Made by a program: the position numbers and the translations under genes. DNA of 40,035 nucleotides from a virus: the UHGV virus genome UHGV-0090445, one strand, 5' to 3'. Under the pieces are notes generated by a model, which was not told the DNA's origin, made no database searches, and saw only the letters and a program-made list of their open reading frames with translations. Below are positions 3,643 through 38,408 of this stretch, piece by piece; position 1 is the stretch's first letter; every line of letters starts with the position of its first letter.

Positions 3643-3864
3643 TTAGTTATCAAAAAGTCCGTACGTTTCTTCTTCTTTAGGTGTAAGGGGAAGAATCTCT
3701 ACTCTATCTATAGATACCTTTTCAATGTACCCATGAGGTCTACTTAAAATTAAAGCTCTCTCATGCCACAGAACTCCAAGAATGTGATACCTTCCAGCAT
3801 CGCCTTTTACCCTGGCTCTTCCTTTGATTCTTGGCGGCATAATGCCATATTTTTTCTTTGCCAT
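3643..3864 (-). CDS. Hypothetical protein (73 aa), translationally coupled to upstream antirepressor gene
   Basis: ORF from track; its start overlaps the stop of the 3864..4643 ORF (ATGA); basic N-terminus MAKKKYG; no family recognised. Confidence 0.4.
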   Translation of the reverse strand: MAKKKYGIMPPRIKGRARVKGDAGRYHILGVLWHERALILSRPHGYIEKVSIDRVEILPLTPKEEETYGLFDN

Positions 3865-4592
3865 TATGCAACATTACTCCCATGAATCAGGTGTTGTAGT
3901 GCTTTAACACCCTCCGCATTGTAGCGGAATGCTTCCACCTGTTTGCTTGAATGCGCAGATTTATCCAAGAAGAACTTCCCGTACTGCTCAGTTTTGAGGT
4001 TGTTTGCGTTAGCAATGCGACCAATCTTGTTGGCCGTTACTCCAAGCTGCTCTGCAACCTCCCCTGCTGAGTAGTAATGCTCTTCTATTGCCGGAAGAGG
4101 TATTGCATTAAAACCAACGAGCGGGTTGATTATACTTGCTGCCGCTGTCTGCTTTGCCTCCGGCGCAAGATTTGGCATCAGATCGAACAGATTGGTAACA
4201 GCTTCAACCGTCATTTTCAATGTTCGCGCTTGACGATACTCAACAAGTCCACTCGCTGATTTACCGCTTTTAATGTGCGCTTCTTGCATACTTTCAAGTT
4301 GGTCTACCAGTGAGCGGCGAACGGCTTTTGACTCGCGAGCGGCAACTCGCAATGCTTGCTTGATTGACATCTCAATGATAACCATCGAAGTTTTGTTCGC
4401 TTTTTGCACTACACTTTTTGTGTAGTGCTCTCCATCCAATTCATCTTCAATTTTCTCGATGAATTTGTTATTACGAACCTCCGGCTCACCGCACTGTCTA
4501 CGAGCCTGATTTACCATCTCAAGCAGGCGCTGGCTGTCAATGGTTTTATCCGTGACAACGGATCCGATGTTTGCTACATTCTTAAAAGTCAT
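3864..4592 (-). CDS. Antirepressor-like protein (KilAC/ANT-like C-terminal region)
   Basis: Track ORF 3864..4643; likely start is ATG at 4592 (MTFKNVANIG...) with SD AAGGAA 6 nt upstream; C-terminal motif EVAEQLGVTANKIGRIANANNL resembles the KilAC/ANT region of the nin-region Rha protein in this window. Confidence 0.6.
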   Translation of the reverse strand: MTFKNVANIGSVVTDKTIDSQRLLEMVNQARRQCGEPEVRNNKFIEKIEDELDGEHYTKSVVQKANKTSMVIIEMSIKQALRVAARESKAVRRSLVDQLESMQEAHIKSGKSASGLVEYRQARTLKMTVEAVTNLFDLMPNLAPEAKQTAAASIINPLVGFNAIPLPAIEEHYYSAGEVAEQLGVTANKIGRIANANNLKTEQYGKFFLDKSAHSSKQVEAFRYNAEGVKALQHLIHGSNVA

Positions 4593-4661
4593 TAGGCATT
4601 CCTTATGTGGTAGTAAGGGTGTGACATAGGCCGCCAGCAGCACACTGGCGGTTTTCTTTTT
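4587..4661 (+). ncRNA. Candidate sar-like antisense RNA covering the ant2 translation start
   Basis: Plus-strand promoter-like -35 GTGACA (4552..4557), 17-nt spacer, -10 TACATT (4575..4580); strong intrinsic terminator CCGCCAG-cagcaca-CTGGCGG + TTTTCTTTTT at 4631..4661. No plus-strand gene precedes it; transcript would be antisense to the ant2 SD and start codon. Confidence 0.35.
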
Positions 4662-4680
4662 GCGCCGTCCGGCGCACCAA

Positions 4681-5403
4681 TCAATGAATCCATTCCTCGC
4701 CGCGAAGTTTTGCCAGCATTGGCTGAGCGTTCTTTACGACAAAATTGTTGGTATCAAGATTCTTCATTTCACGAAGAAGTGATTTCTTGGTTTCTTCTGA
4801 CATGTAGCGAGTCTCATATGCAATATCGTAAATCCTTCCTGAAAGCTCAGAACCAATTTGCTTCATTCCTGGGTAGATGTGTTTGCACATTTGTTGACTC
4901 TTCTCCATCCACAATTGTAAGTAGCAGAGATTAACCAGTTCTTCGTCAGTAAACTGTTTTGCAATCGGTGAGCATTCTGCCTGCCGATCCAAAATATCCA
5001 GCACCCAGCGGCGGAACTCTTTGGCCTTGGGCGTAGAAGCAAACATCGCCACCAAGTGAGCGCCTCGGAGCGAGTAAACTCTGACCGATTTGTTACGTAA
5101 GCTATTGTTTATTCCGTTGACCTTCATATTGAGGGTCAATGACATTGAGTCGGAAAATTCGTCAGCATTACGGGCATAAATTTGGCTGATGGCATCAGTT
5201 TTTTTATAGCCGAGAGCCTTAGCTAGTTCGGCGGAGGTGAACCAGATAGACCCGCCCTCTGTTACAGGGTTAAAAGTGAATCCTTGGAAGTTATAATCTG
5301 ATTTTGCTACAATATTCATGTTAGTTTCCTTGGGTACGGTTACTGACATAGAGGCCCGGTTTGTGTTCGCGCACTTCCGGGCTTCACTATTTTTACTGGG
5401 CAT
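4681..5403 (-). CDS. ant: Antirepressor with Bro-N domain
   Basis: Bro-N-like region FTFNPVTEGGSIWFTSAELAKALGYKK...VRVYSLRGAHLVAMFASTPKAKEFRRWVLDIL; start overlaps the Arc stop (coupling); position matches P22 immI arc-ant. Confidence 0.8.
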   Translation of the reverse strand: MPSKNSEARKCANTNRASMSVTVPKETNMNIVAKSDYNFQGFTFNPVTEGGSIWFTSAELAKALGYKKTDAISQIYARNADEFSDSMSLTLNMKVNGINNSLRNKSVRVYSLRGAHLVAMFASTPKAKEFRRWVLDILDRQAECSPIAKQFTDEELVNLCYLQLWMEKSQQMCKHIYPGMKQIGSELSGRIYDIAYETRYMSEETKKSLLREMKNLDTNNFVVKNAQPMLAKLRGEEWIH

Positions 5404-5584
5404 TAGCTCTTTCCTCTCTCAGGCTTTTAGCCAGTCGCTGCACAATCGCAGAGTTGATAGAAATTCCATCCATTTCAGCTACGCGTCTGATCTCCTCCTT
5501 CATTCGCGCTGGCAAACGAAGCTGGAAACTCTGACTTTTACGACCACTGTAAAGAACATCGCTCATCATCAATATCTCCGTCAT
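5393..5584 (-). CDS. arc: Arc-like ribbon-helix-helix repressor
   Basis: 63 aa; FQLRLPARMKEEIRRVAEMDGISINSAIVQRL resembles P22 Arc (FNLRWPREVLDLVRKVAEENGRSVNSEIYQRV). Confidence 0.8.
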   Translation of the reverse strand: MTEILMMSDVLYSGRKSQSFQLRLPARMKEEIRRVAEMDGISINSAIVQRLAKSLREERANAQ

Positions 5585-5585
5585 A

Positions 5586-5640
5586 ATGACATCACCGTGA
5601 TGTCATGACACCATTATGATGCCATTGCTCATAATGTCAA
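5586..5640. promoter_or_regulatory. immI control region: perfect 10-1-10 palindromic operator plus divergent Pant-like and Pmnt-like promoters
   Basis: ATGACATCAC-C-GTGATGTCAT at 5586..5606 immediately upstream of arc; minus-strand promoter -35 TTGACA (complement of 5635..5640), 17-nt spacer, -10 ATAATG (complement of 5612..5617); plus-strand -10 CATAAT near 5630..5635. Confidence 0.5.
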
Positions 5641-5689
5641 TATGATGCTACTGTGTTTTTTATTGCTCATATGCCTTGCGAATAAGAAA

Positions 5690-5941
5690 ATGTCAGAAAA
5701 AGACGAATCAAATTTCATAGAAAGATTTACGGTTAGAATGCCTGACGGCATGCGTAGTGCTATTGCGGAAAGGGCTAAACGAAACGGTCGATCTATGAAC
5801 TCAGAGATAGTTCAAATTCTTGAGGATGCGTTATCATCTGACGTCTCATCAGTAGACAAATCATTAGATCTTAAACAAATAAAATCTTTACTTGATAAAA
5901 TTTCCAACGAGTTACTGGATAGAATCCCAAAAGACACATAA
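5690..5941 (+). CDS. mnt: Mnt/Arc-family ribbon-helix-helix repressor, divergent from arc-ant
   Basis: Internal start at ATG 5690 of ORF 5642..5941; FTVRMPDGMRSAIAERAKRNGRSMNSEIVQILEDAL is an RHH motif; placement and orientation match P22 mnt. Confidence 0.7.
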   Translation: MSEKDESNFIERFTVRMPDGMRSAIAERAKRNGRSMNSEIVQILEDALSSDVSSVDKSLDLKQIKSLLDKISNELLDRIPKDT

Positions 5942-5991
5942 CAAAACATTATCATCCGGTGTTCTGCTCAAAACTAAGGAGTGGCTACTCA

Positions 5992-6630
5992 ATGAAAAAA
6001 ATAGATATATATAGCGATACATCAGCCTATGTCATAGGCTCATTGGGTTTTTTAATTTTTTTTGTTTGGCAGTACCAGTCACTATCTCCAGGATGGCGAT
6101 TTTTTGGGATGTCTTTGATATCACTTGGTGCAGGAATAGCAACGCAGGTGTTGATGTATCTCTTTAATGGATGGCTCTCAAAAAGAGTTGAGAAAAAAAG
6201 AGCTACTTCAATATGTAGAAGCCTAGCTATTCCAGAAGACTCTACAGATCAGGATGATATTGCAAAATGTTGGCGGTATATGATTGCAAGATACTCAAAT
6301 GAGTTACTGGCAAACAGACTGTCCGACTTAATCGGGGTCGTAGTTACCTCTGTTGGAACAATCATCAGTATAGGGATATCAATTTGGTATGTCGGGATGA
6401 TTGTCTATTTTGTTTGGAATAGAGACTTCAATGAACCTTCCCTTCTTTTTATACCTTTATTTTTCAGGGTATTAGCATTCATATGTGAGTTATTGCTCTC
6501 TTTTTTCTGCAATGTTTTGTTCAACAGATACCCAGGTGAAGCAAGAAAGTTTAATAAAAACTATGATGAGTTAAGGAGAACAGATCCTTTTCTATCAAGT
6601 AAAGAGTTCCGCGATTCCATTCGCAATTAA
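5992..6630 (+). CDS. AT-rich predicted 4-TM inner-membrane protein at the SieA position (candidate superinfection exclusion protein)
   Basis: Start ATG 5992 with SD AAGGAG (5977..5982); four hydrophobic segments; AT-rich by eye; sits between mnt and the gp16 homolog as sieA does in P22. Homology to SieA not verifiable here. Confidence 0.65.
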   Translation: MKKIDIYSDTSAYVIGSLGFLIFFVWQYQSLSPGWRFFGMSLISLGAGIATQVLMYLFNGWLSKRVEKKRATSICRSLAIPEDSTDQDDIAKCWRYMIARYSNELLANRLSDLIGVVVTSVGTIISIGISIWYVGMIVYFVWNRDFNEPSLLFIPLFFRVLAFICELLLSFFCNVLFNRYPGEARKFNKNYDELRRTDPFLSSKEFRDSIRN

Positions 6631-27678: not shown

Positions 27679-29559
27679 TTAATACTCTGTCACGTTTTCC
27701 TGTCGCCACGCCTCGTCATATTCCGATTTCGGCATATTGGCGATGTAGCTATATGGCGATCCTGATTCAAGTTGCAGGAACTGGTGCGATTGTTCATCAA
27801 GGAACAACGGGACACCACCTTCCCAACCTTCGCCGTTACGTTGTTTTTCTAGCATCAAAACAGATGCCGGAGACGCCAGTAGCTGTTCGTCCTTCTCTGA
27901 CATCTTTTCACCACTCTGAACTCTCTGTAACGCTCTCTCGCGAGCCTTGTTACGCCAGATGATGAAAAGGTTGTCTGTCAGGTCTGTTATCGCTCCAGAG
28001 CCTTTTACGTCCATTTTCCCGGTTGGTTTTTCTTCGCTGTCTCCTTTTCGCGAGTGAGTAACGAGAATGACGTGGGAGTTTGTTTTGTTTTTGAAGTCGC
28101 AAATCGAGTCAACAAACGCCTTCTGCCCGTTATAGTCATCGTCGCCTATGCCACATTTCATCAGGCTGTCGATGATGAATAACTGGATCCCGTATCGGCG
28201 GCGAGCGTAGTCGAATATTTCGATCAGCCTGTCGGCTTTCGCCGTTCCGGTCAGGCCAAACACCCAGAGTCTTTCGTCATAGAATTTAAATGCAGAGTCA
28301 ATTTCAAGCACTGGCGGCATCTTGCAGCACGTTGCCTGACGGGTAAGGCGCTTAAGGAGAATACCAGGCTTCAGCTCAAGTGACGCGATGCACGTCTTCA
28401 CACCCTGACGCATTGCCTCAAGTGCCATATGCCCGACAACCTCCGTTTTTCCGTGACCGTTCACACCATTGACCAGCGTCAACTCGGCCTCACGGAACTG
28501 GAATTTATCTGCCAGAGATTCCCACGGTGGATTAAACAGATACTGCTGCTTGCCGTAGAAAGCGTTGATAGTGTCCTGGTAAAACTCTCGCGCGCTGTAG
28601 AGTTCTTCAGGGTCGAAGTAGGATGCCGTGCCGATGTACTGCCAGATTTCATCCTCGGTAACACCGTTCATCAGGCATTCGTTGATGTCTTTGTACGGCA
28701 GAGTAACAAGACGGCAACGATGTTCACCGAGTCGGCTTGCGATTTCCCTTGCGGCTTCACGACCAACATCATCAACGTCCATCGAGATGAATATTTCCTC
28801 AAACCTGTCGAGGTTGTGATACTCAAACTCAATCCACTGTTGCTTAGCGCCTTTCCCGCCACCAAACGGCACGGATAACGCCGAGATGCCGTATTGCGCA
28901 TAGCTCATACAATCAATTTCGCCTTCGCAAAGTACAACCGCCCTCACGCCAGCGTCCAGAGCCTGCCATCCGAACAGACAAGGTTCGCAATCACCTTCTG
29001 CCATAATTACTTTCTTCCCGTCCGGGCGATCAGTGCTGATTCGCTTGACCTGCAACAACTCACCATCGCGTTTGTACGGAAGCACCAGAGCATCCAGTTC
29101 TCGCTCTCCATTCCACACCTTGCCGCTGACAACCTCGTAGCGCTTTACGACTTCTGGCGATATACCACGCGATTGCAGGTACTCAAGATGGGATTCTGTT
29201 CTGGTAACGTAGCGGGCGATTTTCTTGCGATCAGGTCTGGAGAATTTTTTCTCACGTTTGGCATCGAAATGGTGATCGTCATCCTTGATACCGAGAAATG
29301 CTTTCGCTTCCTGCATAGCCTGATGCAGGTTAATTCCACGACATGCCATCCACAAATCAAGCATGTCACCGCCGTCTCCCTCAGCGAAATCAGCCCATTT
29401 TTTCTTGCCGCTAAGGTTGACCTTAAGGCTGTTTCCCTTGTCACCGTTGACGTTACCGGCAACCCACTCATGCCCCTCTTTCTTGCCGTTTGGCAACAGG
29501 TGCGGAGCCACCCTGTCAACCTGCGCCCAAAGCAGGTCGCTCAGTTCACTTGGAGTCAT
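27679..29559 (-). CDS. Bifunctional primase-helicase (Toprim-type primase N-terminus, DnaB-like helicase C-terminus)
   Basis: 626 aa; Toprim-like acidic motifs (VVLCEGEIDCMS, FISMDVDDVGREAAREI); Walker A LVNGVNGHGKTE and DnaB-like FIIDSL...; downstream of the initiator gene. Confidence 0.85.
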   Translation of the reverse strand: MTPSELSDLLWAQVDRVAPHLLPNGKKEGHEWVAGNVNGDKGNSLKVNLSGKKKWADFAEGDGGDMLDLWMACRGINLHQAMQEAKAFLGIKDDDHHFDAKREKKFSRPDRKKIARYVTRTESHLEYLQSRGISPEVVKRYEVVSGKVWNGERELDALVLPYKRDGELLQVKRISTDRPDGKKVIMAEGDCEPCLFGWQALDAGVRAVVLCEGEIDCMSYAQYGISALSVPFGGGKGAKQQWIEFEYHNLDRFEEIFISMDVDDVGREAAREIASRLGEHRCRLVTLPYKDINECLMNGVTEDEIWQYIGTASYFDPEELYSAREFYQDTINAFYGKQQYLFNPPWESLADKFQFREAELTLVNGVNGHGKTEVVGHMALEAMRQGVKTCIASLELKPGILLKRLTRQATCCKMPPVLEIDSAFKFYDERLWVFGLTGTAKADRLIEIFDYARRRYGIQLFIIDSLMKCGIGDDDYNGQKAFVDSICDFKNKTNSHVILVTHSRKGDSEEKPTGKMDVKGSGAITDLTDNLFIIWRNKARERALQRVQSGEKMSEKDEQLLASPASVLMLEKQRNGEGWEGGVPLFLDEQSHQFLQLESGSPYSYIANMPKSEYDEAWRQENVTEY

Positions 29560-29669
29560 TACGCTGACCTCAGATCGAGACGGTTAAACCAGAACTCAAC
29601 GAATGCAGAACTAAGCCAGCCATGGTTATAGCCAGCGATAAGTAACGATTTGATTCTGGATTTCATGGT

Positions 29670-30467
29670 TCACCTGTCGAAAAACACGTAGCCAGTTTTC
29701 GATACGGTGATTGCGGATGATGGTTTGGATTGTGGTTGAATAGTTTCTGGCTTCTCGTCGTTCCAGCGTTGACCGTTCAGGTAGCTCGATGGTAACAACC
29801 TGTCGAACCCGAACTGCTTACCGAGCCTGCACGCAATGTCTTCTGCCAGCATCGTGGCAAACTCGCTTGCCGTCCCCCTGGTAGTTTTACGCCATTCCCT
29901 GAACTGTGTTCTGAATGCTGAAGCTGCGTTTTTCTTCCCGGCTTTCCGCATGCCTGCACACCAGAATATTTCCTCGAATGCCTTGTCGGTTTCTTCGTGA
30001 CGGTCAGGAGTTTTTTCACACTCTGTTCGGACATGTTCGAACATAATGTTTTTAGGTTCATTGACTGGTTCAAAAGAGTGATAGGTTCTGGGGGCAGCTC
30101 CTGCCCCACCCCCTAGGGCAGCTCCTGCCCCACCCCGGGCAGCTCCTGCCCCACCCCGGGCAGCTCCTGCCCCACCTGATTCTGGTTGGATTTGTTGTGC
30201 ATTATCCAGCGTCAGATAAAAAACGTTTGACTGGTTAAGCTCTCCTTTTCTTCTGAATTCCCTTTTCAAAAGCCCCATCTCTTCCAGTGCCCTAATGTGA
30301 CTTTTTACTGTCGATCTGCTCACCTCACACTGGTCAGCGACATGTTGATATGAAGGCCAGCATTCGCCATTATCATTGGCGTTATCGGCAAGTTTAATCA
30401 GAACCAGTTTTCTCAGTGGGTTGCCAACCTTTATATTCATGGCCTTAGCCATAAGATTCATGCTCAT
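29670..30467 (-). CDS. Replication initiator (O-like, winged-helix HTH N-terminal domain) containing the origin iterons
   Basis: 265 aa; N-terminal RKLVLIKLADNANDNGECWPSYQHVADQCEVSRSTVKSHIRALEEMGLLKR; internal peptide repeats GGAGAAR x4 encoded by the iterons. Confidence 0.75.
   Translation of the reverse strand: MSMNLMAKAMNIKVGNPLRKLVLIKLADNANDNGECWPSYQHVADQCEVSRSTVKSHIRALEEMGLLKREFRRKGELNQSNVFYLTLDNAQQIQPESGGAGAARGGAGAARGGAGAALGGGAGAAPRTYHSFEPVNEPKNIMFEHVRTECEKTPDRHEETDKAFEEIFWCAGMRKAGKKNAASAFRTQFREWRKTTRGTASEFATMLAEDIACRLGKQFGFDRLLPSSYLNGQRWNDEKPETIQPQSKPSSAITVSKTGYVFFDR
30094..30176. repeat. Origin of replication iterons: four dyad-symmetric repeats with 21-bp spacing
   Basis: GCAGCTCCTGCCCCACC at 30094, 30118, 30139, 30160; each contains GGGGCAG/CTGCCCC inverted arms; located inside the initiator coding sequence as ori-lambda is inside O. 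Confidence 0.7.
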
Positions 30468-30619
30468 TTTGACTTCTCCGAAGTTTTGTACCTGTTAAGT
30501 ATTTCTCTCAGTGGCACAGCTATTGCTGGATTAACCCCCTGATAAAACTGGTCACGTAGCACATCTTTTCGGTGATTAACGCGTTTATTTTCCTGCGTTT
30601 TTCGCATATAATTACCTCG

Positions 30620-30689
30620 TTGGATGTTGTTAAAATTCCATTTGTATTTGATCAGAACGCTCGGTCTTGCACACCGGGCGTTTTTTATT
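30620..30689 (+). ncRNA. oop-like antisense RNA overlapping the 3' end of cII
   Basis: 3' part CCATTTGTATTTGATCAGAACGCTCGGT-cttgcac-ACCGGGCG-TTTTTTATT resembles remembered lambda oop 3' region and terminator; -10 TATAAT at 30607..30612. The 5' end and promoter are less certain because upstream sequence diverges from lambda. Confidence 0.45.
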
Positions 30690-30926
30690 GGTGAGAATCG
30701 AAGCAACTTGTCGTGCCAATCGAGCCATGTCGTCGTCGACGACACCCCATTCAAGAACAGCAAGCAGCATTGAGAACTTTGGAATCCAGTCCCTCTTCCA
30801 CCTGCTGATCTGCGACTTATCAACTCCCACAGCTTCCGCTGTCTTCTCAGTTCCAAGCATTGCGATTTTGTTAAGCAACGCACTCTCGATTCGTAGAGCC
30901 TCGTTGCGTTTGTTTGCACGAACCAT
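30630..30926 (-). CDS. cII: CII transcriptional activator (lambda-type)
   Basis: Internal start Met21 of ORF 30630..30986; MVRANKRNEALRIESALLNKIAMLGTEKTAEAVGVDKSQISRWKRDWIPKFSMLLAVLEWGVVDDDMARLARQV... essentially identical to remembered lambda CII. Confidence 0.9.
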   Translation of the reverse strand: MVRANKRNEALRIESALLNKIAMLGTEKTAEAVGVDKSQISRWKRDWIPKFSMLLAVLEWGVVDDDMARLARQVASILTNKKRPVCKTERSDQIQMEF

Positions 30927-31005
30927 ATGTAAGTATTTCCTTAGATAACAATTGATTGAATGTATGCAAATAAATGCATACACCATAGGTGTGGTTTAAT
31001 TTGAT

Positions 31006-31037
31006 GCCCTTTTTCAGGGCTGGAATGTGTAAGAGCG
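31006..31037 (-). promoter_or_regulatory. nutR (boxB hairpin plus boxA), lambda-type
   Basis: Minus strand reads CGCTCTTACACATTCCA (boxA) then GCCCTGAAAAAGGGC (boxB), matching remembered lambda nutR; flanked by lambda-like tR1 region sequence. Confidence 0.8.
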
Positions 31038-31045
31038 GGAATGTC

Positions 31046-31261
31046 TTAAGCGGCTTTGTGTTCCGGAGGGAACACGTCATCAAGACTGACTTTTGCGCCT
31101 AACTTGTTTAGGCATGCAACAAGAGCGCGGCATGTTTTAAGGTCTGGGAAGCGACGACCAGATTCCCAATGTCCGATAGCTCCCTGTGTGCATCCAACTG
31201 CCTTAGCAAGTGTTGTTTGAGAGATATTCAGTGACTCTCGATATTTTCGTAGGTTGCTCAT
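31046..31261 (-). CDS. cro: Cro-like HTH repressor (XRE family, non-lambda immunity)
   Basis: Internal start at ATG 31261 (MSNLRKYRESLNISQTTLAKAVGCTQGAIGHWESGRR...) with SD GGAGGG; divergent from the repressor gene. Confidence 0.8.
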   Translation of the reverse strand: MSNLRKYRESLNISQTTLAKAVGCTQGAIGHWESGRRFPDLKTCRALVACLNKLGAKVSLDDVFPPEHKAA

Positions 31262-31287
31262 ATGCCCTCCATAGTAACCATGAAACA

Positions 31288-31316
31288 ATAATACGATATG
31301 TACTTTTAGAATGCAA
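31288..31316 (-). promoter_or_regulatory. pR-like promoter within the OR region
   Basis: Minus strand -35 TTGCAT, 17-nt spacer, -10 TATTAT upstream of cro; GTAC-containing dyad motifs nearby (operators not precisely defined). Confidence 0.45.
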
Positions 31317-31378
31317 ACAAAAAATACATCTTGTGCATGGATGGTTTTAGTACAGAGCGTAATAATAAGGGTATGAAA

Positions 31379-32032
31379 ATGAAATGGTATGAACTGGCTA
31401 GATCCAGAATGAAAGAGCTCGGCATAACTCAAGAGAAGTTAGCTGAAGAGCTTGGTATGACGCAGGGTGGAATTGGTCACTGGTTGCGCGGATCTCGTCA
31501 TCCATCTCTTGACGAGATTGGTGTGGTGTTTAAATACCTTGGTATTGATAATGTCTCATTCAACCACGACGGTACATTTTCACCTGTTGGCGAATACTCA
31601 TCTGCCCCCGTTAAAAAACAATATGAGTACCCTGTTTTTTCTCATGTTCAGGCCGGGATGTTCTCGCCTGAGCTTAGAACCTTTACCAAAGGTGATGCGG
31701 AGAGATGGGTCAGCACAACCAAAAAAGCCAGTGATTGTGCGTTTTGGCTTGAAGTTGAAGGTAATTCCATGACCGCGCCAACAGGATCCAAGCCAAGCTT
31801 TCCTGACGGGATGTTAATTCTCGTTGACCCTGAGCAGGCTGTTGAGCCAGGTGATTTCTGCATAGCCAGACTTGGTGGTGACGAGTTTACCTTCAAGAAA
31901 CTGATCAGGGATAGCGGTCAGGTGTTCCTACAGCCACTAAACCCGCAATATCCAATGATTCCATGCAATGATAGCTGTTCCGTAGTAGGGAAAGTTATCG
32001 CCAGCCAGTGGCCTGAAGAGACATTTAGTTAA
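31379..32032 (+). CDS. cI: CI/C2-type prophage repressor (HTH plus LexA-like S24 autocleavage domain)
   Basis: ORF 31331..32032, probable start ATG 31379 ([35 protein letters not shown]...); C-terminal S24-like region with GNSMTAPTG and catalytic-type Lys. Confidence 0.85.
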
Positions 32033-32157
32033 CAGCCTCACCACTCTAAAACACACAACAATAACCCGACCTTAGCGTCGGGTTTTCTTTTTCCAAAATA
32101 TAAACCCATTAAATACAAAGCGTTATAAAAAACCAATTATATTTAGAACATTTTGTA

Positions 32158-32186
32158 TTGACTCGATAAAGTACAAATCGTACTAT
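32158..32186 (+). promoter_or_regulatory. pL-like promoter
   Basis: -35 TTGACT (32158..32163), 17-nt spacer, -10 TACTAT (32181..32186), about 40 nt upstream of nutL; adjacent GTAC-containing dyad (AAGTAC-aaatc-GTACT). Confidence 0.5.
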
Positions 32187-32226
32187 TTAGCCATCAGCAG
32201 GACGCACTGACCACCATGAAGGTGAG

Positions 32227-32256
32227 GCTCTTAAAAATTAAGCCCTGAAGAAGGGC
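32227..32256 (+). promoter_or_regulatory. nutL (boxA plus boxB), lambda-type
   Basis: GCTCTTAAAAATTAA followed by GCCCTGAAGAAGGGC (32242..32256) then AGCATTCAAAGCAG, matching remembered lambda nutL. Confidence 0.85.
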
Positions 32257-32442
32257 AGCATTCAAAGCAGAAGTCTTTGGGATTGGATGAATGCGCAGGC
32301 TGATGCGCACACGAATGTAACTTGCTGGTCAAGTCTCCCCACAGCGACGGGGGTGCAACTGATTCATTTCGTGGCATGTCTAGCTAGCCGGGGTTCAGCG
32401 CCGGCCATCCAATCACCAAAGCTAACTGACTGGAGAATCCAG

Positions 32443-32769
32443 ATGGATGCACAAACACGCCGCCGCGAACGTCGCGCAGAGAAACAGGCTCAATGGAAAG
32501 CAGCAAATCCCCTGTTGGTTGGGGTAAGCGCAAAACCAGTTAACCGCCCTATTCTCTCGCTGAATCGCAAACCGAAATCACGAGTAGAAAGCGCACTGAA
32601 TCCGATAGACCTTACGGTGCTGGCTGAATACCACGAACAGATTGAAAGCAACCTGCAACGTATTGAGCGCAAGAATCAGCGCACATGGTACAGCAAGCCA
32701 CGCAGTGAAATGGGTGTGACTTGTGTTGGTCGCCAGAAAATGAAATTAGGCAGCAAACCACTTATTTGA
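32443..32769 (+). CDS. N: Antiterminator N (lambda-type)
   Basis: Internal start ATG 32443 of ORF 32287..32769; MDAQTRRRERRAEKQAQWKAANPLLVGVSAKPVNRPILSLNRKPKSRVESALNPIDLTVLAEYH... matches remembered lambda N arginine-rich motif and body. Confidence 0.9.
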   Translation: MDAQTRRRERRAEKQAQWKAANPLLVGVSAKPVNRPILSLNRKPKSRVESALNPIDLTVLAEYHEQIESNLQRIERKNQRTWYSKPRSEMGVTCVGRQKMKLGSKPLI

Positions 32770-32777
32770 GGTGATAT

Positions 32778-33029
32778 ATGGAGTTTCATGAAAGTGCGAT
32801 TTGTGATTTTCGCGCTAACGCAAATTCAGTAAAACCACAGCCAATTGCAGTTCTTTTTAAAACAATGGGTGCGTGGGCTGTTTTATGCTTCGCCGCTGAC
32901 GACACTGACGCAAGAATGGCAATAGGCCAAGAGATGGAGATGGACCCGACAAACGATGAATTCATAATTTATGGCGCTCCATCTAATTACTTACTTGATA
33001 CCTGCAACATTTACAACAAGGCTGCCTGA
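32778..33029 (+). CDS. Hypothetical early protein (83 aa)
   Basis: ORF from track immediately after N; no family recognised. Confidence 0.45.
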   Translation: MEFHESAICDFRANANSVKPQPIAVLFKTMGAWAVLCFAADDTDARMAIGQEMEMDPTNDEFIIYGAPSNYLLDTCNIYNKAA

Positions 33030-33069
33030 TGGTGGCCTTTATTTTTGGCATAAACAATATGGGGTAAAA

Positions 33070-33396
33070 ATGAAAGTTTTAATGGTTTATGAAAATGTTC
33101 CAGAGTCGACTGAAATCTATATTTTTGATGCCAATGAAGATGAAGTTAACGATTTGAAATTGTCTCACGGCAATTACACAAATGCTAATTGTGATGAAAG
33201 TATCGAAAAAGCACTATCACGTGTTCTTGTCAGAATTAGTGATCCAGAACATTGTGATGATGATTGGCTTTCTTATTGTGGAGCGGTAAAAACTGATGCA
33301 GGAAAATGGAGTAAAAGTAAAGTTGATAACTCAACTCCAATTATTATGAAAGATAGCGATATTGAAATGGTAATAATAACCGGAATGATTATGTAG
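33070..33396 (+). CDS. Acidic AT-rich hypothetical early protein (108 aa)
   Basis: Internal start ATG 33070 with SD GGGG; about 21 Asp/Glu vs 10 Lys/Arg by hand count; strongly AT-rich codons. Confidence 0.5.
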   Translation: MKVLMVYENVPESTEIYIFDANEDEVNDLKLSHGNYTNANCDESIEKALSRVLVRISDPEHCDDDWLSYCGAVKTDAGKWSKSKVDNSTPIIMKDSDIEMVIITGMIM

Positions 33397-33502
33397 GCTG
33401 CGAATAAGCACTGTGTATTCATTCCAACGAGTGAATACACGGAGCAATGTCGCTCGTAACTAAACAGGAGACGACTTGTTCTGATTATTGGAAATCTTCT
33501 TT

Positions 33503-33529
33503 GCCCTCCAATGTGAGGGCGATTTTTTA
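33503..33529 (+). terminator. Intrinsic terminator inside the pL operon
   Basis: GCCCTC-CAATGT-GAGGGC followed by GATTTTTTAT. Confidence 0.4.
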
Positions 33530-33548
33530 TCTGTGAGGATATGAACAG

Positions 33549-33917
33549 ATGTCAAACATCAAAAAATACATCATTGATTACGACTGGAAAGCATCAATAG
33601 AAATTGAAATCGACCATGACGTAATGACAGAGGAAAAACTTCACCAGATTAATAATTTCTGGTCAGACTCTGAATACCGACTCAATAAACACGGCGCTGT
33701 ATTAAATGCTGTATTAATCATGCTGGCGCAACATGCTCTGCTTATAGCAATTTCGAAAGACTTAAATGCATATGGTGTTGTTTGTGAGTTCGACTGGGAT
33801 GATGGAAATGGTCAGGAAGGATGGCCTCCAATGGATGGTAGTGAAGGAATAAGAATTACCGATATCGATACATCAGGAATATTTGATTCAGATGATATGA
33901 CTATCAAAGCCGCCTGA
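33549..33917 (+). CDS. Acidic hypothetical early protein (122 aa)
   Basis: ORF from track; about 23 Asp/Glu vs 9 Lys/Arg by hand count, acidic C-terminal region EFDWDDGNGQEGWPPMDGSEG...FDSDDM. Confidence 0.55.
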   Translation: MSNIKKYIIDYDWKASIEIEIDHDVMTEEKLHQINNFWSDSEYRLNKHGAVLNAVLIMLAQHALLIAISKDLNAYGVVCEFDWDDGNGQEGWPPMDGSEGIRITDIDTSGIFDSDDMTIKAA

Positions 33918-36175: not shown

Positions 36176-36643
36176 ATGTCTCACTTGGACGGAATTATTA
36201 AAAGATTCGAGTCCAGCTACAAAGTTAATGAAACAACAGGTTGCTGGGAGTCTACCTATTCAAAAAACAAAGGAGGATACACAAAATTTGTAGCCTTTGG
36301 CGTAACAATGCTTTCTCATCGGGTTGCTTTTGAGCTTTATCACTCCCCCATTCCATCTGGGAAGATGGTTTGCCACAAATGCGATAACCCATGCTGCGTT
36401 AATCCTGAACATCTCTTTTTAGGTAGCGCGCAAGAAAACATGGACGACAAGATAGCAAAAGGAAGGCATCGTGGAGCCAAGAAAGGTCATGCTCATCATG
36501 GTGCAAAATTAACAGAGTGGCAGGTTATAGAAATTAGGAAAAGACTCTCTGAAAAAGAGAGTCAGTACAAGATAGCAAAAGACATGGGTGTATCTCAATC
36601 AATTATAAGCAACATAAAAACTGGCAAGAGGTGGAGAAAATGA
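36176..36643 (+). CDS. HNH homing endonuclease with C-terminal HTH-like region, insertion between annealing protein and SSB
   Basis: 155 aa; Cys/His-rich HNH-like core ([26 protein letters not shown]); C-terminal [22 protein letters not shown]; stop overlaps ssb start (ATGA). Confidence 0.8.
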
Positions 36644-37885: not shown

Positions 37886-38408
37886 TTATCAGGCACTGCG
37901 TGCTAAGGCAGAAAAAGCAACGTGTGGCGAGTGGTCGCTCGAATATGGAGAGAGCCGATTTGATTGTGATGATGCGCTAATTCATCGTGACATTGTTGGA
38001 TATCTTCCCATTTGCAGAATTGAAGGAGCGCATCCTGAAAGCGGTTTCGATGAAGATTTCCAAACTGAACAGCAGGCCAATGCTGAATTCATCGCCGCAG
38101 CCAATCCGGCTACCGTGCTGGCACTACTGGATGAACGGGAAAGGAACCAGCAATACATCAAACTCCGCGATCAGGAGAACGAGGAAATTGCGCTAACGGT
38201 AGGGAAGCTGCGTGTTGAGCTGGAAGCCGCAGAGAAGCGCATTGCAGAACTGGAAGCACGGGAGGTTGTACTGCCGCGTGCGCACGATGTTCACCCATTA
38301 GGGCCGCAGTCGGCGAAAATTTTTTGTGAGTTTCACCGGAGTATCGTGAACAGATGCGCCGATGAGATTCGCAAGGTTGGCGTCAAAGTCAGCATCAAGG
38401 GGAATTAG
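37872..38408 (+). CDS. Ead/Ea22-like protein
   Basis: 178 aa, GTG start preceded by AGGAGG; motif QQANAEFIAAANPATVLALLDERE followed by coiled-coil-like segment, typical of Ea22-like proteins as I recall them. Confidence 0.65.
   Translation: MSQIDYQALRAKAEKATCGEWSLEYGESRFDCDDALIHRDIVGYLPICRIEGAHPESGFDEDFQTEQQANAEFIAAANPATVLALLDERERNQQYIKLRDQENEEIALTVGKLRVELEAAEKRIAELEAREVVLPRAHDVHPLGPQSAKIFCEFHRSIVNRCADEIRKVGVKVSIKGN

Follow-up and report, generated by a model that had tools for sequence, protein, structure and literature searches.

The DNA studied here, hereafter the window, is a stretch of 40,035 nucleotides (nt) from the virus genome UHGV-0090445, in which positions 30630-32769 form a complete lambdoid immC region, as read from the sequence and its open reading frames (ORFs), with the lambda map lying on the minus strand. 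We consider it about 90% probable that this region is the immC switch of a P22-like Escherichia coli phage or prophage, built from modules of mixed ancestry, in which lambda-type N, nut and cII are combined with an immunity specificity of the VT2-Sakai type (VT2-Sakai, AP000422, is Sp5 of E. coli O157:H7 Sakai). Judged by its sequence, the cassette of repressor, Cro and operators is this known immunity type and not a new one, as the DNA-binding domain of CI, the whole of Cro and the operator half-sites all agree with those of VT2-Sakai.

The organization of the region is that of an immC. The genes cI (31379-32032, plus strand; 217 amino acids (aa), with HTH_3 and Peptidase_S24 domains in Pfam) and cro (31046-31261, minus strand; 71 aa, HTH_3 in Pfam, Xre-type) are divergent and enclose a control region (31263-31377) with a tripartite right operator (OR), in which the pR match overlaps OR1, and a second tripartite operator, the left operator (OL), lies over pL (OL/pL control region, 32091-32191) upstream of an N-type gene. 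On the outer sides are cII (30630-30926, minus strand; Phage_CII in Pfam, E=3.8e-48), coding for a lambda-type activator of lysogeny establishment, which is separated from cro by the nutR/tR1 spacer (30927-31045), and the antiterminator gene N (32443-32769, plus strand; N36 in Pfam, E=1.5e-26), whose product joins a lambda-type arginine-rich motif and body to a non-lambda C-terminal tail. A terminator scan placed an intrinsic terminator 3' of cI, the equivalent of t-imm, at 32063-32084 (plus strand; 32063-32092 in a wider delimitation), and BLAST against lambda delimited a pL leader with nutL (32192-32281, plus strand) and a replaced, non-lambda N-leader segment (32282-32413, plus strand). All four genes (cII, cro, cI and N) are intact, and promoters, operators, nut sites, the promoter of repressor establishment (PRE) and the terminator were all found. 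Rfam families searched on 30000-33600 gave no match at E<=1, so the nut, oop and N-leader RNAs are without a curated family.

Mosaic structure of the region

Comparison with lambda was made by BLAST against NC_001416, and wider searches covered 50,697 phage records, 5426 complete E. coli genomes and IMG/VR contigs. Positions 30634-31039 correspond to lambda 38649-38247 (cII, PRE, tR1 and nutR; 96.8% nt identity), 31622-32026 to lambda 37637-37233 (the cI C-terminal domain; 93.6%), 32055-32090 to lambda 35834-35799 (the terminator just past rexB; 89%), 32192-32281 to lambda 35583-35494 (pL transcript start through nutL; 97.8%) and 32414-32744 to lambda 35389-35062 (N; 93.7%, with 98.8% over the first 257 nt compared). 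Taken together, the lambda-like parts (cII, PRE, nutR/tR1, the pL leader with nutL, N for the most part and the C-terminal domain of CI) show 94-100% nt identity to lambda. No lambda match was obtained by BLAST for cro, OR, the cI N-terminal domain (31379-31621) or OL/pL. Two thirds of the repressor are lambda-like, and the non-lambda "cassette" consists of two separate patches around the cI C-terminal domain. The genes rexA and rexB, which lambda carries, are both absent 3' of cI in the window.

The first-pass annotation of this DNA had described N, both nut sites, tR1 and CII as looking identical to lambda. They are lambda-like. In nutR/tR1, 30927-31039 equals lambda 38247-38359 over 113 nt (100%); CII is 94.9% identical at the aa level (95.6% nt), whole N 90.7% at the aa level, and boxA of nutL has one substitution (GGCTCTTA versus CGCTCTTA in lambda). 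Alignment with lambda places nutR at 31006-31037 on the minus strand (boxA CGCTCTTA, 31030-31037; boxB GCCCTGAAAAAGGGC, 31006-31020) and nutL at 32225-32255 on the plus strand (variant boxA GGCTCTTA, 32225-32232; boxB GCCCTGAAGAAGGGC, 32241-32255). Both boxB elements are those of lambda, and residues 1-64 of N, including the arginine-rich motif, equal lambda N, the first difference being E65 (K65 in lambda), which identifies a lambda-type N/nut module. The boxA variant of nutL also occurs in a prophage of E. coli Z1323HEC0300 and is not found in the phages Louie and 683R2.

Within N, positions 32443-32716 are 98.8% identical to lambda at the nt level and the last 53 nt of the gene are not lambda-like. 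These 53 nt, together with the 13 nt beyond them (32717-32782), are 100% identical to VT2-Sakai DNA, and at the protein level residues 72-108 of N agree with phage 21 N at 78% identity. By its sequence, 32717-32782 adds another small mosaic patch within N. The matching VT2-Sakai DNA is located at and downstream of the stop codon of that phage's own, unrelated N.

A lambda-type CII/PRE module is likewise recognizable from the CII-family activator together with a TTGC-N6-TTGC site (TTGCGTTTGTTTGC, 30904-30917, plus strand), the CII binding site of PRE, which is the same as in lambda, lies at the start of cII and faces cI. Antisense to the 3' end of cII, a terminator hairpin (30654-30690, plus strand; terminator-like from 30654 to 30684 and followed by a T run) sits at the position of lambda oop inside the lambda-homologous block. 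A perfect TATAAT -10 element is present at 30597-30602, from which an RNA start at about 30609 was read, so that a putative oop-like antisense RNA ending at this terminator is likely.

The window leaves and rejoins lambda at lambda coordinates 38247 and 35583, corresponding to 31039/31040 and 32191/32192 in the window. The laboratory phage lambda imm434 (OM418626), in which a foreign cI-cro-operator cassette likewise stands between lambda N/nutL and nutR/cII, loses and regains lambda identity at the very same coordinates, suggesting that the natural mosaic uses the joints of the classical hybrid; the likeness to classical lambda immunity (imm) hybrids proposed in the first-pass annotation is thus supported by the joints themselves. 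The two differ in that lambda imm434 has 434 specificity, a CI C-terminal domain 37% identical to that of the window and an otherwise lambda genome, whereas the genome of the window is P22-like. Both joints fall at sequences that are conserved across immunity types, namely the last cro codons adjoining nutR on one side and the pL transcription start (lambda 35583) on the other. The pL transcripts of VT2-Sakai and the window agree in their first 14 nt, and at the position of the pL start the P22 record carries the annotation "sequence similar to lambda early left transcription RNA". Cassettes of other kinds stand between the same flanks in E. coli EP91A and two IMG/VR contigs (L015 and L019), with joints at 31057 and 32180-32186, that is, at most 18 nt away. 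Short conserved stretches of this kind are the expected crossover points under the model of modular exchange.

One recent recombination between a lambda-like and a VT2-Sakai-like phage, with breakpoints recording a single swap, would fit the sharpness of the outer joints, at which nutR (100%) and the pL leader (97.8%) adjoin DNA without lambda similarity. We nevertheless regard such an origin as unlikely, given that identity to lambda is uneven by block (100%, 98.8%, 97.8%, 95.6% and 93.6%) and that nt identity to VT2-Sakai is uneven too (97% in cro, 95% in the cI N-terminal part, 91% in the cI C-terminal part, 84% in OR and 77% in OL). Additional patches are present in the N leader, at the 3' end of N and at the rex deletion, both N patches recombine independently of the cassette, and the lambda-like C-terminal domain is already part of the CI of VT2-Sakai. 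Because the two repressors have this domain in common, it predates the genome of the window. Along the region, which is a patchwork, identity changes at least seven times, at divergence levels of 91-100%, and this unequal divergence argues against its being the product of one recent swap. As a separate observation, the DNA-binding domain of the 434 repressor is 100% identical in the P22-like phages Sf6, Sf101, Huey and HK446, indicating that classical immunity cassettes circulate widely between lambda-like and P22-like genomes.

Between nutL and the N ribosome-binding site, 132 nt (32282-32413) have been replaced by non-lambda sequence that has no match in the phage records; the full segment occurs in two of the 5426 E. 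coli genomes and in six IMG/VR contigs, and all of these carry other cassettes, none of them combining the variant with the Sakai-type one. An exact 43-nt probe of the variant found no match among one genome per GTDB species. The predicted fold of the leader (32192-32460) is more stable than those of shuffled sequences (z=-2.8). An in-frame ORF starting at 32287 continues into N.

Immunity type

Cro is identical to that of VT2-Sakai over all 71 aa and had no BLAST match to lambda Cro; it is an all-helical, Xre-type helix-turn-helix (HTH) protein and does not have the lambda Cro fold. CI is 96% identical to VT2-Sakai CI at the aa level, with 96.3% (78/81) in the N-terminal domain and an identical HTH motif. 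Residues 1-81 of CI form a non-lambda HTH domain that matches lambda CI over 29 aa only (41%), and the next-nearest phage CI N-terminal domains, those of Salmonella g341c, epsilon34 and L-type phages, are about 54% identical. Residues 82-217 form a lambda-like, LexA-like S24 peptidase domain, 98.5% identical to lambda CI at the aa level, in which Ala92-Gly93, Ser130 and Lys173 align with lambda A111-G112, S149 and K192, so that the Ala-Gly site and the Ser/Lys dyad are both in place; a PDB search with CI returned 3bdn (E=2e-96). The statement that repressor, Cro and operators are non-lambda, made before any database search, therefore applies to Cro, the operators and CI residues 1-81, but not to the CI C-terminal domain. 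VT2-Sakai CI belongs to CI clade I of a published classification, the clade closest to lambda CI (PMC8951638).

Six sites fit the pattern AGTAC-N5-GTACT at no more than three mismatches, at 31290, 31323 and 31349 in OR and at 32112, 32145 and 32170 in OL, and have the consensus A[G/A]TAC-N5-GTA[C/T]T. When no more than two mismatches are allowed, four of the ten hits in the whole 40-kb window fall within the 188 control-region positions (binomial P ~1e-7), and the GTAC-containing dyads of the first-pass annotation can accordingly be confirmed. The VT2-Sakai record and that of an Stx1-converting phage (AP005153) each annotate three OR and three OL operators, which coincide with the six sites of the window, and 11 of the 12 half-sites equal those of VT2-Sakai. 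OR1 (31290-31304) reads AGTAC-ATATC-GTATT in map orientation, both of its half-sites equalling the annotated VT2-Sakai operator, OR2 (31323-31337) reads TGCAC-AAGAT-GTATT, and OR3 (31349-31363), which overlaps the inferred promoter of repressor maintenance (PRM), reads ATTAC-GCTCT-GTACT. OL1 (32170-32184) is a perfect AGTAC-N5-GTACT dyad, OL2 lies at 32145-32159, and OL3 (32112-32126) contains the only deviating half-site, its left one, ATAAC instead of ACAAC, a difference of one base. The operators were located by the pattern search and alignment with VT2-Sakai. A promoter scan placed pR at 31288-31317 on the minus strand (-35 TTTGCA, -10 TATTAT), where it corresponds to the annotated VT2-Sakai pR, and pL at 32158-32186 on the plus strand (-35 TTGACT, -10 TACTAT), where it overlaps OL1/OL2.

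The lambda immunity type does not apply, as the CI DNA-binding domain, Cro and the operators are all non-lambda. The other classical types were considered and rejected: for 434, the CI N-terminal domain had no significant match (E=5.5) and Cro was 38% identical over 34 aa; for phage 21, the CI N-terminal domain had no match and Cro was 35% identical over 20 aa; for P22, the values were 30% for the CI N-terminal domain and 33% over 21 aa for Cro; for HK620, the CI N-terminal domain was 61% identical over 33 aa only and Cro had no match. The alignment that had been proposed as a check, with the immunity regions of lambda, 434, 21, P22 and HK620, thus points to none of these types, and it upholds lambda-like flanks around a repressor that is not lambda cI. 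P22 immC (NC_002371) resembles the region in genome type and in the gene order 24(N)-OL-c2-OR-cro-c1, with a cII/C1 identity of 55% and an unrelated N.

VT2-Sakai itself also differs from the window. The likeness comprises Cro, CI, the six operator positions and the lambda-like CI C-terminal domain, whereas its cassette is joined to an N of the 933W/H-19B type and a cII of the HK022/933W type (31% and 33% aa identity to N and cII of the window) in place of lambda-type N, nut and cII. Two extra ORFs are located between cI and OL in VT2-Sakai and none in the window, and the DNA between the operators has diverged by 16-23%.

Several points weigh against a straightforward assignment to the VT2-Sakai type and a straightforward lambda-type N function. 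OR and OL are only 84% and 77% identical to VT2-Sakai DNA. The divergent positions fall within the operator centres and the inter-operator spacers, and OR1 and OR2 are 1 nt further apart, so that relative affinities or cooperativity could differ; one OL3 half-site differs as well. The start codon of CI is uncertain, the candidates being 31379, 31373 and 31337. Finally, the variant nutL boxA together with the replaced N leader could alter the expression or function of N. If the operator differences and the three substitutions in CI residues 1-81 were given full weight, the region might be taken for a new, undescribed immunity specificity; this appears very unlikely to us, because the CI HTH motif and the whole of Cro are those of VT2-Sakai, nearly all half-sites are unchanged, and a sensitive BLAST search found 63 of the 50,697 phage records to span 80% or more of the stretch from cro through OR to the cI N-terminal part, with 93-99% nt identity. 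Among these 63 are VT2-Sakai and its relatives, namely the Stx1-converting phage, Stx2 II, Nil2, 2851 and 1717 (about 93.6% nt identity). The primary comparison of Stx-phage immunity regions is reportedly that of Fattah et al. 2000 (Genes Genet Syst 75:223).

With regard to the CI start, RefSeq-style annotation of identical repressors begins at the ATG corresponding to 31337, giving 231 aa, so that OR3 and PRM would come to lie within the coding sequence, and the start chosen by the authors of the VT2-Sakai sequence is the equivalent of 31379 (217 aa). It may be speculated from the spacing to the inferred PRM -10 element that the in-frame ATG at 31373 is the start of a leaderless cI mRNA.

A 2023 paper reported in vitro binding of lambda CI to operator sequences of VT2-Sakai (PMC10742460, PMC9803871), which is surprising given the very different CI DNA-binding domains and operator consensus. 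The Sakai-type repressor is not treated in the "hair-trigger" Stx repressor paper (PMC5977221).

Distribution and integrity

The whole N-to-cII module is present at about 98% nt identity in phages obtained from sewage and E. coli, among them Louie (PQ850616), Dewey (PQ850600), vB_EcoP-683R2 (ON470594), vB_EcoP-720R6 (ON470605) and phi458 (OP434518), which show the same mosaic at 98-99%; 683R2 is classified as Lederbergvirus and is thus P22-like, as is the window. These five phages lack the 132-nt variant and have the usual lambda-like N leader; with the exception of 720R6, they also differ from the window in their replication modules downstream of cII, which are of the O/DnaC or O/DnaB type instead of an HTH initiator and a primase-helicase. 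The N-to-cII module was found in 64 of the complete E. coli genomes at a coverage of at least 80% of the query. The cro-OR-cI-OL core occurs in 768 of them (about 14%). The mosaic is therefore already known, being present in deposited and annotated phage genomes, and its immunity type is very common.

This distribution bears on two further explanations. A decayed, non-functional remnant in a cryptic prophage might be suspected because the cII of the related prophage in E. coli Z1323HEC0300 is annotated as a pseudogene with an internal stop; that the region of the window is such a remnant seems most improbable, however, with its four genes intact, its control sites present, a full P22-like gene set around it and a 98-99% identical module carried by phages from sewage and E. 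coli. A laboratory lambda imm hybrid, a vector-derived sequence or an assembly chimera would match the joints shared with lambda imm434 but can practically be dismissed, since the surrounding 40 kb are P22-like, the flanks are 94-100% and not 100% lambda, and the module is shared by independent wild phages and those 64 E. coli chromosomes.

Genomic context

The window amounts to an essentially complete P22-like prophage, with integrase, tailspike, P22-type portal, terminase, coat, Q, NinB, Erf and SSB, and its structural, lysis, replication and integration genes form a full set of the P22-like kind. No tRNA was detected by a scan of the whole window. A P22-like second immunity region resembling immI is located at 3864-6630 and comprises two antirepressor genes (3864-4643 and 4681-5403, both on the minus strand), an Arc/Mnt-like repressor gene (5642-5941, plus strand) and a SieA-like exclusion gene (5959-6630, plus strand). 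It is conceivable that an antirepressor of the window could inactivate the CI of the immC region.

The replication module (27679-30467) is not lambda O/P. It consists of an HTH_36 initiator gene (29670-30467) and, following it, a gene for a Toprim/DnaB-like primase-helicase (27679-29559). Inside the initiator gene, a 21-bp iteron, GGGCAGCTCCTGCCCCACCCC, is repeated 3.9 times at 30092-30176. Between cII and the initiator gene, an ORF of 48 aa (30464-30610) matches phrog_1913, labelled "tail protein", and occupies the position of P22 orf48, which bears the same label, and of Orf48 in HK022 and VT2-Sakai. For an ORF of the early region, this label looks like a propagated annotation error. In the recombination module, an HNH endonuclease gene (36176-36643) lies between erf and ssb; in related prophages, an HNH endonuclease is inserted beside cII instead.

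Predicted working and implications

Directly observed are the identities, domains, operator positions and joint coordinates given above; binding, cooperativity, cleavage and an immunity phenotype are what we infer from them. In the proposed working of the switch, CI dimers would bind OR1/OR2 and OL1/OL2, turning off pR (cro, cII and replication) and pL (N and recombination genes) and regulating PRM. As the CI C-terminal domain is almost the same as that of lambda CI, it may be expected to mediate dimerisation, pairwise cooperativity and OL-OR looping over about 0.8 kb, and RecA-stimulated self-cleavage would occur at A92-G93 by S130/K173. Cro, whose recognition helix is closely similar to that of CI, would compete for the same operators and favour lytic growth. 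N, with its lambda arginine-rich motif, would read the lambda boxB in nutL and nutR, and the lambda-type CII would activate the lambda-identical PRE, by which repression is established. Given that the specificity corresponds to that of VT2-Sakai, homoimmunity of the phage is to be expected with VT2-Sakai-type phages and heteroimmunity with lambda, 434, 21, P22 and HK620.

More tentatively, in a cell with both a lambda-immunity and a Sakai-immunity prophage, the two repressors could form mixed dimers or mixed cooperative or looping complexes, which might couple or weaken immunity and induction thresholds of heteroimmune prophages, including those of Stx2 phages. Such complexes are conceivable because the C-terminal domains are near-identical while the DNA-binding specificities differ, as is the case for all VT2-Sakai-type repressors. 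Separately, the 132-nt N leader could control the translation of N. We regard both ideas as rather doubtful.

The region represents a clean example of modular lambdoid evolution, in which cassettes have been swapped between the same conserved joints, and it does not constitute a new kind of system. A non-Stx, P22-like prophage that has the immunity specificity of the Stx2 phage of O157:H7 Sakai could repress, exclude or recombine with Stx phages.

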